In this document: in pieces, positions 16,361-57,469 of the stretch | Layout: each line of letters opens with the position of its first letter | Position numbering within the stretch: position 1 is the stretch's first letter | IMG/VR virus record: IMGVR_UViG_3300045015_000053 | Origin: a virus | Taxonomy: Duplodnaviria > Caudoviricetes | DNA: 64,000 bases | Reading direction: 5' to 3' (one strand) | Position numbers and translations under genes: made by a program | Notes under the pieces: model-generated | The model's database searches: none | What the model was told of the DNA's origin: nothing | The model's input: only the letters and a program-made list of their open reading frames with translations

Positions 16361-16600
16361 ATGAGAACATTCAAAGACTGGCTCGCAAATGTCGAGAGCA
16401 ACGTTTCCGCTGAAACATCCACAAGCACGGGCGACGTTGCGGGCAACCCCTTCGGTGCGGGCATCCAGCATTACAACCCTAGCCGGGACCAGTACGGCCT
16501 CCTCAAGAAGAAAAAAAAAGACGGAAGCGAAGAGGGGCTAGGCGGTCAGGTGATTCCGATGCGATTCACCGGCGGTAAACCGGCCGGCAGCCGCGAGTGA
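16361..16600 (+). CDS. putative internal head protein (capsid-targeting-like N-terminus)
   Basis: AAGGA RBS; MRTFKDWLANVE; in-frame A9 run at 16511-16519. Confidence 0.65.
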   Translation: MRTFKDWLANVESNVSAETSTSTGDVAGNPFGAGIQHYNPSRDQYGLLKKKKKDGSEEGLGGQVIPMRFTGGKPAGSRE

Positions 16601-51718: not shown

Positions 51719-52187
51719 GTCGCTCGTTGCGTATTCGGAGGTGCCGAGGAAGACCGAAGAGGTCAGCCGCGACGATCCGGCCGAAGTTTTCAAAAAGCTG
51801 AACTGTCTGCGGGTCATCTGCGCCCGCGAACGTGGGATCGGCCTCGCCGCCGTCCAAATCGGTATGACCGACCGGATGTTCGTAGTCCGCAACCCGGACG
51901 ACAGCTTCAGGTTCTTCATCAACACCAAGTATCTCCCGGTCGGCGAGCAAACTTTTACCAGTTGCGAGTCGTGCCTCTCCATCCCCGGTCGCATGTTTCT
52001 TGTTCCCCGAAAGAGCGAGATCCGGGTGGTCGGGACGGAAGTGTTTGTCGGATCTGAGGTTACGTTCAAGGATGTCGATTTTACCGAGTCGGACCCGCTT
52101 TACTCGGCGGTTTTCCAGCACGAGATCGACCACTGCGACGGGGTGATGATCAACGAGGTAGGTCAGGAAATTCGGGTTCGATGTTAA
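51708..52187 (+). CDS. def: peptide deformylase
   Basis: GIGLAAVQIG, ESCLSIPG, QHEIDHCDG. Confidence 0.92.
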   Translation: MKNKSLVAYSEVPRKTEEVSRDDPAEVFKKLNCLRVICARERGIGLAAVQIGMTDRMFVVRNPDDSFRFFINTKYLPVGEQTFTSCESCLSIPGRMFLVPRKSEIRVVGTEVFVGSEVTFKDVDFTESDPLYSAVFQHEIDHCDGVMINEVGQEIRVRC

Positions 52188-52257
52188 AAGAACGGCTTTA
52201 CGACTTGGCCGGTTCTGCCTATACTGAAAGTCGTGCCAACGGATCATTGGAGATTCC

Positions 52258-52533
52258 ATGCTCAGTCGTAAGCACTTGAACGACGTGTGTCTTCTGTATT
52301 CTGGAGACTCACGTCGTTGCCGTTTTCTCACGCAAGACGATTCCGACCCCTCGAAGTGGCACTGTTTGAAGCTTACCTCGCGCCGTCAGGACATAGACGT
52401 TGAAGTGGCCGATTTCATCAAAGACTGTCGGCGGAAGGGTCAAGACCCTGCGAAATCTGGGATGCCGCTCGGTGACAACTGCGGCGGCTACCCTGTATTG
52501 AAGAACATCAATCAGGGCTATGATTGCCCATAG
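52258..52533 (+). CDS. hypothetical Cys-rich protein
   Basis: GGAG RBS; C..CRFL..C..NC.GY; ends QGYDCP. Confidence 0.7.
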   Translation: MLSRKHLNDVCLLYSGDSRRCRFLTQDDSDPSKWHCLKLTSRRQDIDVEVADFIKDCRRKGQDPAKSGMPLGDNCGGYPVLKNINQGYDCP

Positions 52534-52568
52534 GTGAAAAAACCGCAAACCATGATCTATATACGATC

Positions 52569-53099
52569 ATGGAAGACATGACAGGAAAGGTTCTCAACCG
52601 CCAGAAGGTCATCGAGATCGTAGAGGGGACAAAAAGACCTATCCTCTGGAACGTAAGATGTCTAAACTGCGGTGCCGAGAGAACTAACAATCGCGCCAAC
52701 TTCTTAAAGGGGTACGGTTGTAAAACGTGTAGTATGCTCGCAAAGGGCCAAGCTGGTCTGAACAGGTTGTTTAGACAGTACAAGCGACAAGCGAAGAATC
52801 GTGGATTCCAACTTACGCTTGAAGACTTGAAGTTTTTGAGTGGTTCCAATTGTCACTATTGCGGTGTGGTTCCTCAATCCGTGATATACGGCAACTCTCC
52901 AGGGACTTGGAGTGAGTATATGTACAATGGAATCGACCGCAAAGATAACACCCAGGACTACGTTCTGACAAACTGCGTCTCCTGTTGTTGGCGTTGCAAT
53001 AGAACATTTGGTCCTTTGTTTGATTACGAAGAAAAACTGATACTCGCCGAGGCGTTGCGAAAAATCGACCGGCGGCGACAAAGTCAAGACTGTCCCTAA
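52569..53099 (+). mobile_element. free-standing HNH-type endonuclease (same family as the 13181 N-terminal domain)
   Basis: AT-richer; CLNCG, CKTC, FQLTLE, CHYCG, GIDRKDNTQDY, NCVSCCWRCN; ends QSQDCP. Confidence 0.8.
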
Positions 53100-53137
53100 T
53101 CCGGCCGTTTTCATCAGTCACCCGTGGAGACTCGCGT

Positions 53138-53545
53138 ATGAGCGATCAAGTCTTGGACGACGATTTGGATGAGGACAAGAAAGACCAGCCCACAGTCAAG
53201 GACGTGGTCGCGGACGCGAAGTTGTGGATGGGCAGTTACTTCTCGGACAAGCCCTACTACTGCGGCGGTTCGATACCCCATCACATCCTCTACAACCAGA
53301 AGCGGATCAACCTCGTCCTCGACTGCACGTTCGATCACGCGATGGACATCGCCCACGAAGCGTTGGAGAAGAACTTGACCGACGAGGACTGGGAATACAT
53401 CGATGCCGGCGGGGTCGGCCCTGACATCAAAAGCCTGATTTCCGTGCTACATAGCATGTCGGACGAGAAGGTGCCGCAGGAGTACAGTCCGGGCATGCTG
53501 GTCGTCTACCTCGAACTCTGCATGGGTCTTGATGTCGCGTATTGA
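53138..53545 (+). CDS. hypothetical acidic protein
   Basis: GGAG RBS, 135 aa. Confidence 0.7.
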   Translation: MSDQVLDDDLDEDKKDQPTVKDVVADAKLWMGSYFSDKPYYCGGSIPHHILYNQKRINLVLDCTFDHAMDIAHEALEKNLTDEDWEYIDAGGVGPDIKSLISVLHSMSDEKVPQEYSPGMLVVYLELCMGLDVAY

Positions 53546-53918
53546 ATTCGTCTGGACGCCTGAGATGGACCTGTGGTTCATCTCAGGCGATTTCTTTGAG
53601 CAGCCCATCCCCCGCGAAAAAGAGTACCTGCTCAAGTATTTCGAGTCGCGGCTCCAGCGGCAGTTCGTGAGATACTTTTTGTTGTTTCGGTCGCCGCGAA
53701 ACTTCACCGATCACACCGGCCTTCGGGTTCTCCCGCTCTGGCTTCGCAAGCTCCGCAAGAAGATGAACATTCTCGAAACCGCCCACGCGAAGGCGAAGGC
53801 GGATTTTGATTTGGAGCTTGTAGCAAAGATCGAAACCGGCGTATATAAGGTATGTCACTCCTCACGTTCAAAGACTGGCGCAAAAAGCAAAACGAGTCCA
53901 GTCCACAAACCCGTTTGA
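53532..53918 (+). CDS. hypothetical protein
   Basis: 128 aa; overlaps both neighbours. Confidence 0.55.
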   Translation: MSRIEFVWTPEMDLWFISGDFFEQPIPREKEYLLKYFESRLQRQFVRYFLLFRSPRNFTDHTGLRVLPLWLRKLRKKMNILETAHAKAKADFDLELVAKIETGVYKVCHSSRSKTGAKSKTSPVHKPV

Positions 53919-54076
53919 TGCAAGGTATCGCGCGAGGCAACTACCCGCCGACCGCGTCCCCGTTCACCCACTCCACGCCGGCTCCGTGGCAGTTGGACGC
54001 CAACGAAAAGGCGCTGAAGAAGGGCAAAAAGCGTAAGCATCGGAAGAAAAAGGGCGGTGCGAAAAAAAAAGACTGA
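53852..54076 (+). CDS. putative basic internal head protein
   Basis: MSLLTFKDWRKKQNE; Lys-rich tail; TATATA 4 nt upstream. Confidence 0.7.
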   Translation: MSLLTFKDWRKKQNESSPQTRLMQGIARGNYPPTASPFTHSTPAPWQLDANEKALKKGKKRKHRKKKGGAKKKD

Positions 54077-54252
54077 AGAGGCCGAAGAAGATCGACCGGC
54101 CTCGTCCGTTCAACGGCAGTCTTGACCAGTGGGTTGCGGCGGCGGATAATCTTGAGAAGGCTCTTTTGAAACTCAAAGACGCCCGATCCAAAGCCAAGTT
54201 GAAGAAACCCAAAGCCAATGAACGAGATAACCCTCAATCAAAAACAACATGA
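54062..54252 (+). other. candidate -1 programmed frameshift and extension frame
   Basis: A9 slippery run, 7-nt spacer, 7-bp stem GAGGCCG/CGGCCTC; the -1 frame is open for 59 codons to TGA 54250-54252. Confidence 0.5.
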
Positions 54253-54655
54253 CGACATGGAGGTCGTTGTCGATCAGAGCGGCAGCACGTTTCTCATCGT
54301 CGCCGTTCAACACAAGGATTCGTCTCGGAACACACTGAACCGGATCACCTGCAAACGTGGCGTGCCGATGGCCGGACACGTTTACGACTCCAAACAAGAC
54401 TGCTACTTCTTCCCTTGCGTTGATTACTTGCTGATCGGCACCATCAATGCCGCCGCCCACGTCATCTCCAAGAGCAACGGCTGGTCGCTCCGCGTTCCCA
54501 TCGCCCTGTCGATCATTCCCGGCCTGCTCGAAGACGTTCAGAAGTCCGACCTCAAGCATTTTGTGGAGTCGTATGACCCAGAACAACACACTTTCAAGTA
54601 CCTCCAACTCATCGACGCCAACGAGTCGTACCCTCCCGTCAAACAATCGGTATGA
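54218..54655 (+). CDS. hypothetical protein
   Basis: 145 aa (alternative ATG at 54257). Confidence 0.65.
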   Translation: MNEITLNQKQHDDMEVVVDQSGSTFLIVAVQHKDSSRNTLNRITCKRGVPMAGHVYDSKQDCYFFPCVDYLLIGTINAAAHVISKSNGWSLRVPIALSIIPGLLEDVQKSDLKHFVESYDPEQHTFKYLQLIDANESYPPVKQSV

Positions 54656-54677
54656 CGATCTGCCGCTGGCCGTCACA

Positions 54678-55001
54678 ATGGTCGCGAAGTCCCTGACACG
54701 CTACGGCGTGGCGGCGGTCATTTGCGACCGCCAGCTTTTCGCCATCGGACAGGGCGACACGGCCGAACTCGACGCGGTCGCGGCGTTCGGAACTGACCTC
54801 AACTCGGCCACGATGTACACGACCCGTAAACCCGACCAAGCGGTCATTACGCTTCTGGAAAAGTGCGGGCTGCGGCGGATCGCGGTTTTGCAGACGGCAC
54901 CGGACGGACACGATTCGTCGCGCGGGATCGTGGACTACTTGGGCGGGTGCGTTTTCCGCATGAGGGACATGATGAAGTCTTTGCCGGGGATGGATAGATA
55001 A
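54678..55001 (+). CDS. deaminase-fold protein lacking zinc ligands
   Basis: VAAVI...IGQG..TAELDAV...ATMYTTRKPD...LLEKCGLRRI aligns by eye to the dCMP-deaminase pattern without HxE/PCxxC. Confidence 0.4.
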   Translation: MVAKSLTRYGVAAVICDRQLFAIGQGDTAELDAVAAFGTDLNSATMYTTRKPDQAVITLLEKCGLRRIAVLQTAPDGHDSSRGIVDYLGGCVFRMRDMMKSLPGMDR

Positions 55002-55006
55002 GCTTC

Positions 55007-55801
55007 ATGGGATGCTCGAACTCTAATATGTCGGTCAACGCCACGTTTCCGACCGTCGATACAAACACCTGCCCCGACCGTCTCGGATGTCCTCCGGGCG
55101 TTTGCCCCGATTTCACAATCCGCCGTCACGACACCAAGCCGCCCTTCAAGGTACATGTCGAAGACTGCGACGGCGCTTTGGATCTGCAAGACAAGGTCGT
55201 TGAGTTCAGCATGTGGGCGAAGGCCAAGCTGAAGACCGACATCACCACTTCCGACTTCACCCTCTCTTTTGCCGACCGCATCGGATTCGATCAGGTACTC
55301 GAAGGCGACATCTTGATCTTCGACCGCGCTCGCGGCCCGGAACACATGAAGGTGATCGGGTTCGATGAGGACAACTACATCGTCATCGTCCAGCGGGCCG
55401 TTAACGGCTCGTCACCCTCGAATTGGAAGAAGGGGACCGTCATCAGGATCATGAAGGAGATGAGTGCGCCCGCCTCGTCCGAACTGATCCTCCAAGACAT
55501 CGTCAACAAGGACGGTACGACGGACAAAGACCAGTTGACCGACAGTTTCCTCGTCTACGAGTGGCAGCCGAGGGACACCTGCCTGCCGGGGTGCTACTGG
55601 GCCGAGTTCAAACTACTTTCTTTGAAGTTGATGGAAACAGACCCAGGTGGGGACGAAGACGACACTACTATAACGATGACGATTTCTCCTTCCGACGCCG
55701 GATGCAAATTGGGCGAGGGGGTAGAATGGGTTAGACGTTTCCCGGTCAGCGGTGAAGGTTATCTGATTAAGGTGTTCGATAGTCCCACCGCAGAACTATA
55801 A
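55007..55801 (+). CDS. putative virion structural protein (BppU-like N-domain)
   Basis: FTIRRHDTKPPFKVHVEDC..ALDL, YEWQPRDT..PG.Y.AEF; TAGATA box upstream. Confidence 0.55.
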   Translation: MGCSNSNMSVNATFPTVDTNTCPDRLGCPPGVCPDFTIRRHDTKPPFKVHVEDCDGALDLQDKVVEFSMWAKAKLKTDITTSDFTLSFADRIGFDQVLEGDILIFDRARGPEHMKVIGFDEDNYIVIVQRAVNGSSPSNWKKGTVIRIMKEMSAPASSELILQDIVNKDGTTDKDQLTDSFLVYEWQPRDTCLPGCYWAEFKLLSLKLMETDPGGDEDDTTITMTISPSDAGCKLGEGVEWVRRFPVSGEGYLIKVFDSPTAEL

Positions 55802-55813
55802 CGGAGAGGGAAC

Positions 55814-57469
55814 ATGCCGACGACAGCGGAGTTTCAGGTCGAGCGTCTCGAAAACGCCGGCATCAAACACGTTTTCACAGTGCCGGGCGATTTCTGCTTG
55901 GGCTTGTGCGATGCGATCTCCAAGAGCAAGATCAAGCTCGTCAACTGTGCCGATGAAGCGTCGGCCGGTTTCGCCGCAGACGCCTACGCACGGGTTCACG
56001 GCATCGGGTGTGTGCTTACGACCTACAACGTCGGCACCCTGAAGTTGTGCAACGCCATCGCCGGGGCATACGCCGAGCGGTCGCCGGTCATCGTGTTGGC
56101 GGGTGCGCCGGGCATGAACGAGCGGCACGAGGACTTCAAGCTGCACCACATGGTTCGCGGCTTCAACATGCAACAGAAGATCTTCAAGGAACTGACGTGT
56201 GCGTCCGTCGTACTTGACGACCCCGTCAGAGCCGCCTTCAAGGTCGATGAAGCGATGGAAGAGATGTACTGGCACCGCCAGCCCATCTACATCGAGATCC
56301 CCCGCGACGTGGCGAACATGCGGGTGAAGTACGACGTGTACCAGCAGGGTACGCCGAAGTCCCAGACGAACAACCAGCCCGCGATGAAAGAGGCGATGTC
56401 CGAAGCCGTCTCGATGCTGCGGGACGCCAAGCGGCCGGTCATCTTTGCCGGCGTGCAGCTACAGCGGTTCGGACTCGGCAAACAGATGCTGCGGTTCGCG
56501 GAAAAGAACAACCTGCCGTTCGTTACGACACCCCTCAGCAAATCGCTGGTGGACGAGCGACACGACCTGTTCCTCGGCGTTTACGCCGGGATGAGTACCG
56601 AGTCGCGGGTGAAGCAGTACGTCGATCAGAGCGATTGCGTGTTGATCTTGGGGGAGATGTTGACCGACATCACTCTGGGGTTCCAGAAGGCACAGTTCAA
56701 GACGGAGAACAGCATCTTCGTGACGGCGGAAGGGTTGGCGATCTGCAACCACAACTATCGCGGAGTTCGGTTCACCGACTTCTGTGCGGAACTGTTCAAG
56801 GTGACATCCGTGAATCACGACCACCCGGTCATTGAGGTGCCGGGCAAGCCGGCTTACAAGCCCGAACCGGAAAAGAAACTGACGGTGCAGCGGTTTTTCG
56901 ACAAGGTCGAGTCGGTTTTGAACGAAGAGACGGTGGTGTGCGCCGACATCGGGGAGAGCCTGTTCGGTTCGATGCACATGAACATGAACGGCGGGGAGTT
57001 CATCTGCCAAGCGTTCTACACCAGCATGGGCTTCGCGATCCCCGCCGCCTTGAGCGTCGGGTTGTCGAAGCCGGCAATGCGTCCGCTGGTTCTGGTCGGC
57101 GACGGTGCGTTCCAGATGTCCGTGGCCGAATTGGGGACCATCGTCAAACAAGGTTTGAATCCCATCGTGTTCGTGCTGAACAACAGCGGGTACGGAACCG
57201 AGCGTCTGCTTTTGGACGGCCCCTTCAACGACATTCCGGCGTGGGAATACCACAAAGTAGTTGAAGTGTTCGGCGGCGTCGGGTATAAAGTGCAGACCGA
57301 AGGCGAGTTGGAAGAGGCCGTCAAAGCCGCTCTCCAAAACAAGAAATTGACTGTGATCAACGTTGTAGTTGATCCCAAAGACACGTCTTGGTCCCTCAAA
57401 CGTGCAACCGAGGGCTTCAAGGCAAACCGCTTCCTAGAAGAAGCGAACAACACGAACGGAAGGAAATAA
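55814..57469 (+). CDS. thiamine-pyrophosphate 2-oxoacid decarboxylase (pyruvate/indolepyruvate decarboxylase family)
   Basis: FTVPGDF, DEASAGFAADAYAR, TYNVG.L...NAIAGAYAE, HH, GDGAFQMS...NNSGYGTER. Confidence 0.9.
   Translation: MPTTAEFQVERLENAGIKHVFTVPGDFCLGLCDAISKSKIKLVNCADEASAGFAADAYARVHGIGCVLTTYNVGTLKLCNAIAGAYAERSPVIVLAGAPGMNERHEDFKLHHMVRGFNMQQKIFKELTCASVVLDDPVRAAFKVDEAMEEMYWHRQPIYIEIPRDVANMRVKYDVYQQGTPKSQTNNQPAMKEAMSEAVSMLRDAKRPVIFAGVQLQRFGLGKQMLRFAEKNNLPFVTTPLSKSLVDERHDLFLGVYAGMSTESRVKQYVDQSDCVLILGEMLTDITLGFQKAQFKTENSIFVTAEGLAICNHNYRGVRFTDFCAELFKVTSVNHDHPVIEVPGKPAYKPEPEKKLTVQRFFDKVESVLNEETVVCADIGESLFGSMHMNMNGGEFICQAFYTSMGFAIPAALSVGLSKPAMRPLVLVGDGAFQMSVAELGTIVKQGLNPIVFVLNNSGYGTERLLLDGPFNDIPAWEYHKVVEVFGGVGYKVQTEGELEEAVKAALQNKKLTVINVVVDPKDTSWSLKRATEGFKANRFLEEANNTNGRK

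Follow-up and report, generated by a model that had tools for sequence, protein, structure and literature searches.

A conserved A_AAA_AAA site and a start-less gene point to a −1 frameshift joining two small basic proteins in a clade of uncultivated huge phages

In IS3 and IS1 elements, orfA and orfB overlap, the second ORF lies in the −1 frame without a start of its own, and a heptamer, A_AAA_AAG or A_AAA_AAA, is followed a few nucleotides downstream by a stem-loop or pseudoknot; the upstream product is made both alone and as a fusion (PMC4066793). Together these two sequences account for 72% of heptamers in IS1 and IS3 elements; for one cluster with A_AAA_AAA, stimulation of the frameshift by a stem-loop has been proven (PMC4066793). 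The phage locus described here shares the arrangement and the heptamer class, but it encodes unrelated small basic phage proteins rather than a transposase, its overlap is about 40 nt and it has no evident pseudoknot. In E. coli dnaX, a lysine-codon heptamer (A_AAA_AAG), accompanied by a 5' Shine-Dalgarno-like element and a hairpin about 6 nt downstream, sets the ratio of two isoforms, and a stop stands directly past the shift site in one frame. Heptamer, hairpin and stop have their counterparts in our locus. The shift in dnaX yields the short isoform; at our locus it would yield the long one, as PMC5009743 mentions for “reversed” dnaX candidates, and there is no convincing Shine-Dalgarno-like element at about 10 nt.

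Among phages, the lambda tail chaperone G/GT and the T7 capsid protein 10A/10B offer the nearest parallels, each being a late gene whose single mRNA is translated, through a −1 shift, into both a short isoform and one extended at the C-terminus. They belong to other families, occupy other genome positions and use other heptamers (G_GGA_AAG and G_GUU_UUC), whereas the present pair lies outside any tail or capsid-shell context. To our knowledge, the well-documented conserved −1 frameshifts of phages are mainly those of the tail chaperone and of a few capsid genes. In Thermus thermophilus dnaX and in IS elements that slip on A9 or T9, a 9-nt homopolymer gives trans-frame products (PMC5009743), as the A9 of our locus would; the clade studied here differs from them in that relatives have only A7, in the codon phase of the run and in the hairpin that follows it. 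The T4 internal proteins IPI, IPII and IPIII, a diverse cargo with only the leader in common, are small, very basic and late, with a leader of the form M-x-x-F/Y-x-D/E-W/F...E (PMC3012670), and the upstream gene of our pair (gene A) is likewise small, basic and of late type, with a leader that looks similar by eye. Past the leader it has no homology to the T4 proteins, and packaging of its product and cleavage of its leader are predictions. We know of no frameshift in the T4 internal protein genes. The case reported here is most likely a conserved −1 shift, a new instance of a well-known mechanism and not a sequencing error, and it would add to the list a pair of small basic proteins, probably packaged as head cargo, from uncultivated huge phages.

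The DNA analysed, referred to as the window, is a stretch of 64,000 nt from the IMG/VR virus record IMGVR_UViG_3300045015_000053 (Duplodnaviria; Caudoviricetes). Its features at this locus are the following.

53842 to 53847, + strand: TATATA box, T4-late-promoter-like, 4 nt before the gene A ATG.
53852 to 54076, + strand: gene A, a 0-frame ORF of 74 aa with a small N-terminal domain and a Lys-rich tail.
53852 to 53896, + strand: N-terminal leader of gene A, MSLLTFKDWRKKQNE, similar to the T4 capsid-targeting sequence (MKTYQEFIAE); its last residue is the invariant Glu15.
54064 to 54070, + strand: slippery heptamer A_AAA_AAA, in phase with the 0 frame and made up of the final 7 nt of an A9 run.
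54070 to 54252, + strand: gene B', the extension in the −1 frame, with 60 codons, a TGA and no start codon of its own.
54074 to 54076, + strand: 0-frame stop TGA, two codons past the A9 run.
54078 to 54103, + strand: hairpin, candidate 3' stimulator, with stem GAGGCCG (54078–54084)/CGGCCUC (54097–54103) and a 12-nt loop.
54109 to 54198, + strand: conserved core of B', FNGSLDQWVAAADNLEKALLKLKDARSKAK, a predicted single long alpha-helix with an invariant Trp.
54218 to 54655, + strand: next gene, 145 aa (MNEITLNQKQ...), overlapping the last 35 nt of the extension.

Our preferred reading, to which we assign a probability of roughly 0.6, is a programmed −1 ribosomal frameshift on A_AAA_AAA that gives a 74-aa protein and a 133-aa A-B' fusion. 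A single late transcript, probably almost leaderless, would carry gene A and the start-less ORF and serve for both products. Most ribosomes would finish with ...GGAKKKD and stop at the TGA, producing A; some would slip back by one nucleotide on 54064–54070, where both lysyl-tRNAs could re-pair perfectly while the hairpin 7 nt downstream acts as a pause, and would read on in the −1 frame to complete the fusion. In most relatives B is a gene apart, coupled to A in translation and equipped with a leader; in the window clade it has lost its start and leader and would be made only as an appendage of A. The ribosomal nature of the slip, its efficiency and the packaging role of the products are the parts of this scheme that we infer.

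The 3' end of gene A reads GCG AAA AAA AAA GAC TGA, with the A9 run at 54062–54070 ending on a 0-frame codon boundary. The 0 and −1 frames are both open at 54037–54076 only, and this 40-nt stretch contains the heptamer. Runs of eight or more A occur just twice in the whole 64 kb, and AAA makes up only 23% of the Lys codons in 15 long window genes, so that three consecutive AAA codons stand out. An initial annotation of this DNA had proposed an A AAA AAA slippery site with a 0-frame stop two codons on, a 7-nt spacer and a 7-bp GC stem, and a protein-like −1 frame that fills the gap downstream. The coordinates of site and stop are correct, the two stem arms are perfect complements, and the −1 reading is exact and homologous to a real gene of relatives. 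Two further candidates at the level of the DNA were rejected. A G-rich element upstream of the run, AAGGGCGGTG, was considered as a Shine-Dalgarno-like stimulator and dropped, its 4–6 nt spacing being too close for dnaX-like −1 stimulation. A second A9 run (16511–16519), found in a 79-aa gene (16361–16600) that likewise has a TFKDW leader and AAA AAA AAA GAC, was rejected as a recoding site, the conserved frame past the run being the 0 frame. A homologue of that gene in the genome of a relative introduced below (locus L032, in the genome of L001) is a continuous ORF without the run. Although probably prone to slippage, the second run is not a programmed site.

From 54037 to 54252 the −1 frame stays open, with the reading RLKRPKK...QSKTT*, while the +1 frame at the locus has many stops. 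No ATG, GTG or TTG lies ahead of the conserved core of B', the first TTG occurring only past the LEKAL stretch. Without the −1 ORF, 141 nt between gene A and the next gene at 54218 would stay unassigned. An HMM of gene B was built from 14 separate-gene B proteins only and searched against 1502 six-frame pieces of the window and of two relatives, L001 and L012. It ranked the −1 piece of L001 highest (E = 1e-5), followed by window positions 54037–54249 (E = 5.7e-5), and the third match had an E value of 0.19. Across 32 core codons compared between the window and L001 in the −1 frame, 14 are identical, 7 differ by synonymous changes only and 11 are non-synonymous; the other two frames are interrupted by stops, with 3 and 0 synonymous changes. 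This homology and this codon substitution pattern mark the extension as a protein-coding homologue of gene B, and B' reads as gene B minus its start and first 15–20 codons. What overlaps the 0 frame at the slippery site is a coding, start-less ORF in the −1 frame.

A decaying, unexpressed remnant of gene B, next to an A-run that is merely part of a Lys-rich tail, would also leave a B-like frame behind gene A. B' is short, with 60 codons against 120–190 for separate B, and in every clade gene A commonly has a Lys-rich tail that contains A-runs. Such a remnant is hard to reconcile with a −1 frame that three diverged genomes keep open over 60, 90 and at least 25 codons, with coding-type substitutions and a core conserved against distant B genes, with a 0-frame stop that sits tight behind the run across the clade, or with a next gene that in L001 starts 5 nt past the B' stop. 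We give decay a very small chance.

In database searches the neighbours of the pair were mostly orphans. Pfam and PHROGs gave no match for A, B' or most neighbours, the exceptions being a peptide deformylase and an HNH endonuclease; neither the A nor the B profile had a meaningful match among PDB sequences, the extension found none among longer proteins, and blastn of 52000–56000 found none in a phage collection. Viral contigs scanned with the extension alignment, with the protein P0106 (see below) and with a degenerate DNA pattern returned the L001 contig only. A match in a Poribacteria MAG (L031) was set aside as chance, its frame being full of stops.

Relatives were collected with P0001, a read-through translation that is one Lys shorter than the true slip product. 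This search gave 11 proteins, ten of them 72–80 aa long and one, P0003, of 189 aa. Nine belong to the window clade, derive from ENA, Logan and JGI assemblies and end in ...KK(D/A/S) like the window, P0006 continuing for six residues beyond that point; the tenth short relative, P0012, is from another clade and ends in KKDD. K72 and K73 are invariant among the clade proteins. The 0-frame stop lies one or two codons past KK in 10 of 12 clade members, and seven codons past it in P0006. Two clade relatives have readable DNA, the others being available as protein only. L001 is a 261,680-bp IMG/VR contig with synteny to the window over ten genes, and L012 is a 1-kb metagenome contig.

Both contigs carry tcA_AAA_AAA in the canonical phase, with A7 instead of A9; like that of the window, their run ends where a 0-frame codon ends. 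B' of both contigs is in the −1 frame and lacks a start codon ahead of its core, and the 0-frame stop follows the run by one codon in L001 and by five in L012. The two frames are open together over 40 nt in the window, 73 nt in L001 and 34 nt in L012, and this stretch holds no slippery motif other than the run. The heptamer thus stands in X_XXY_YYZ phase with the upstream frame in all three, and the window and L012 share the −1 peptide RLK(R/K)PKK(I/V) right after the run. Site and frame relation are kept in both clade loci for which there is DNA, and some relatives are fused in frame. The two isoforms of 74 and about 133 aa proposed in the initial annotation are supported by the site, phase and frame of these relatives and by the conserved extension domain: L001 and L012 need the same −1 shift at A_AAA_AAA as the window does.

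P0003, a member of the window clade, continues in frame into FDGGLDQWVQAADNLEKSLQKLKA, the counterpart of the window −1 peptide FNGSLDQWVAAADNLEKALLKLKDA. In its AF2 model the residues equivalent to the B' core are helical (pLDDT 87–96) and form one confident long helix; the remainder is of low confidence and is probably disordered. The A tail of P0003 contains an internal duplication (ELKANMKAL / KLKANKKAL). Automatic annotation tends to miss the extension, which is a called protein in only two of about 13 clade assemblies seen.

A sequencing or assembly error in the homopolymer, with a true A10 and one continuous 134-aa ORF, had been put forward initially as an alternative only, and the comparative data argue against it. 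Homopolymers are error-prone on some platforms, and P0003 provides a continuous ORF in the same clade. L001 and L012 do not: with A7 they still require −1, and we read P0003 as support for a real fusion. The same stopping place recurs in twelve independent clade sequences drawn from different assemblies, and the 74-aa 0-frame product of the window corresponds to what every other clade has as its ordinary full-length protein A. Diverged A7 relatives with the same layout, nine proteins that end alike, a coding B' and natural fusions together make an error very unlikely, and we attach hardly any probability to it.

The window hairpin, a perfect 7-bp stem separated from the heptamer by a 7-nt spacer, belongs to the minimum-energy fold. 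The 45 nt past the run fold with −15.7 kcal/mol (z = −2.26 against shuffles), at the 8.7th percentile of 45-nt local windows. L001 has an 11-bp stem (−17.7 kcal/mol, z = −1.83 against shuffles, 3.5th percentile of local windows), and L012 a 5+4-bp stem plus two outer pairs (−18.2 kcal/mol, z = −2.71, 22nd percentile of local windows). A GC-rich hairpin is therefore present 3–7 nt past the run in all three, and when conservation of the stem was checked its position held up in both relatives while its sequence, different in each, did not. Compared with all windows along the DNA concerned, folds of this energy stand out only modestly; the hairpin is consistent with a stimulator and is no proof of one. 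Rfam returned no match, and no frameshift element, on 53700–54400.

The slipping machine in the window need not be the ribosome, since A9 is long enough for efficient slippage by RNA polymerase. One A would be added on the run in some transcripts, which would bring B' in frame for normal translation. Bacterial RNA polymerase slips efficiently on runs of nine A or T, exactly the length of the window run, and such slippage is used productively in Thermus thermophilus dnaX (PMC5009743); AAAAAAA is, moreover, avoided in all frames of E. coli, possibly for reasons of slippage (PMC4066793). Against a transcriptional origin, the A7 of L001 and L012 is below the 9–10-bp RNA-DNA hybrid, and neither the X_XXY_YYZ phase nor a hairpin at frameshift spacing is needed by the polymerase, yet both are present in all three genomes. 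The other A9 of the window also lacks a conserved alternative frame. Polymerase slippage, the main rival, is in our estimation unlikely to be the explanation, though it may add to the ribosomal shift in the window, and in that A9 context the two cannot be told apart from sequence alone. Phase, hairpin spacing and the A7 of relatives all fit slippage by the ribosome, which we favour.

Scans with an alignment of the A family gave 29 loci, and in the distant ones B is a separate gene. Its own ATG or GTG overlaps or abuts the stop of A (TGATG, TAATG, ATGA or GTGA). Thirteen distinct loci have B in the −1 frame relative to A, two have it in the 0 frame and one has it in the +1 frame. Where B already started across the A stop in the −1 frame, as in these 13 distant loci, only loss of the start was needed to reach the window arrangement. 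Separate B proteins begin M-x-x-F-S-E-W... and contain the core DIDRWLKSVxxLAKDLxxL. A profile of this core had 97 matches among 1.84 billion representative proteins, most of them beginning at residue 1, as expected of separate B genes. Four proteins (P0079, P0090, P0065 and P0097) are in-frame fusions in which the A domain, a Lys-rich linker and the B core follow one another without the leader of B. This natural architecture is exactly the one that a −1 shift would yield in the window.

The coupling of separate B to A also bears on whether B' might be translated alone, without any fusion, by termination and reinitiation at a non-canonical codon such as the CUG of C-UGA. The overlapping stop and start codons of distant relatives (TGATG, TAATG, GTGA) and a CTGA common to the window and L012 speak for this, as does P0106, a clade-type B' of 57 aa called with its own Met, by which at least one relative may start B' independently. 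CUG, however, is a very poor bacterial start codon, and L001 has no near-cognate start at that place (GTA AGC CCT...). A B' made in this manner would also miss the N-terminal leader that every separate B carries, and in-frame fusions occur in the window clade as well as in others. Reinitiation accordingly has, in our view, a small chance of accounting for B'.

Several observations concern the B tails and the B position in other loci. The tails of separate B genes are tandem peptide repeats: KKPDS in five to nine copies, KKPEV in nine, and SDEKKKDxDKPxK in three copies that differ at two positions (L009, 3231–3638; L028, 3206–3658; L003, 3219–3707). The closely related contigs L009, L020 and L022 have unequal copy numbers. 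In L026 (680–1292), gene A is followed by an unrelated 136-aa ORF in place of gene B.

Gene A itself has 26 relatives of 67–80 aa, with M1, L3, W9, E15, S17, R21, G25, S41 and P43 invariant. In the window its N-terminal domain has the motif ESSPQTRLM...GNYPPTASPF..STP, and its tail ends in GGAKKKD and the stop. The resemblance of the leader, in which W9 and E15 are invariant, to the T4 capsid-targeting sequence (PMC3012670) was judged by eye. In size (74 aa), in basicity (the Lys-rich tail) and in its late-type TAnATA box, gene A corresponds to an internal head protein of the T4 type, and its leader suggests a packaged protein. The box at 53842–53847 is the sole TAnATA within 53500–54700, and none precedes the −1 extension or the next gene in that interval. 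TAAATA, TATATA or TACATA is found 4–5 nt upstream of the gene A ATG in 17 of 18 loci compared, the distance being 19 nt in L016. Such proximity implies almost leaderless late transcripts, with no space for a Shine-Dalgarno site.

Separate B genes have a leader similar to that of A, a weak profile match (hhalign E = 0.0012, probability 19%), and this leader is absent from B' and from all in-frame fusions. With the B leader lost in the window clade and the A leader present, we infer that the shift may lend B' the leader of A, and since A has a T4-like capsid-targeting leader, the shift probably also sets the amount of B' loaded into the head with A. Our suggestion that the frameshift serves to share one capsid-targeting leader between two cargo proteins is a tentative one, somewhat short of an even bet; its proposed rationale is a second protein left without its own targeting leader after the loss of that leader. 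If it is true, the pair would exist across this huge-phage family as coupled genes with two leaders, as an in-frame fusion with one leader and as a frameshift fusion. Slippage would set the ratio of A alone to A-B', and recoding would control the stoichiometry of head-packed proteins that are injected with the DNA. With all three evolutionary states of A and B present, the family would show, in a clean and naturally occurring case, how recoding sites come about.

The TGA of the extension (54250–54252) stands 4 nt before an in-frame ATG of the next gene at 54257; the conserved N-terminus of that gene, MDESTLNQKQ in L001, favours the ATG at 54218. The closeness of the extension stop to starts of the next gene in the window and in L001 suggests that this gene may be coupled to shifted ribosomes. 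Within the syntenic block the HNH endonuclease insertion differs in place: it follows a 91-aa gene in the window (52524–53099) and lies directly before gene A in L001 (about 2500–2995).
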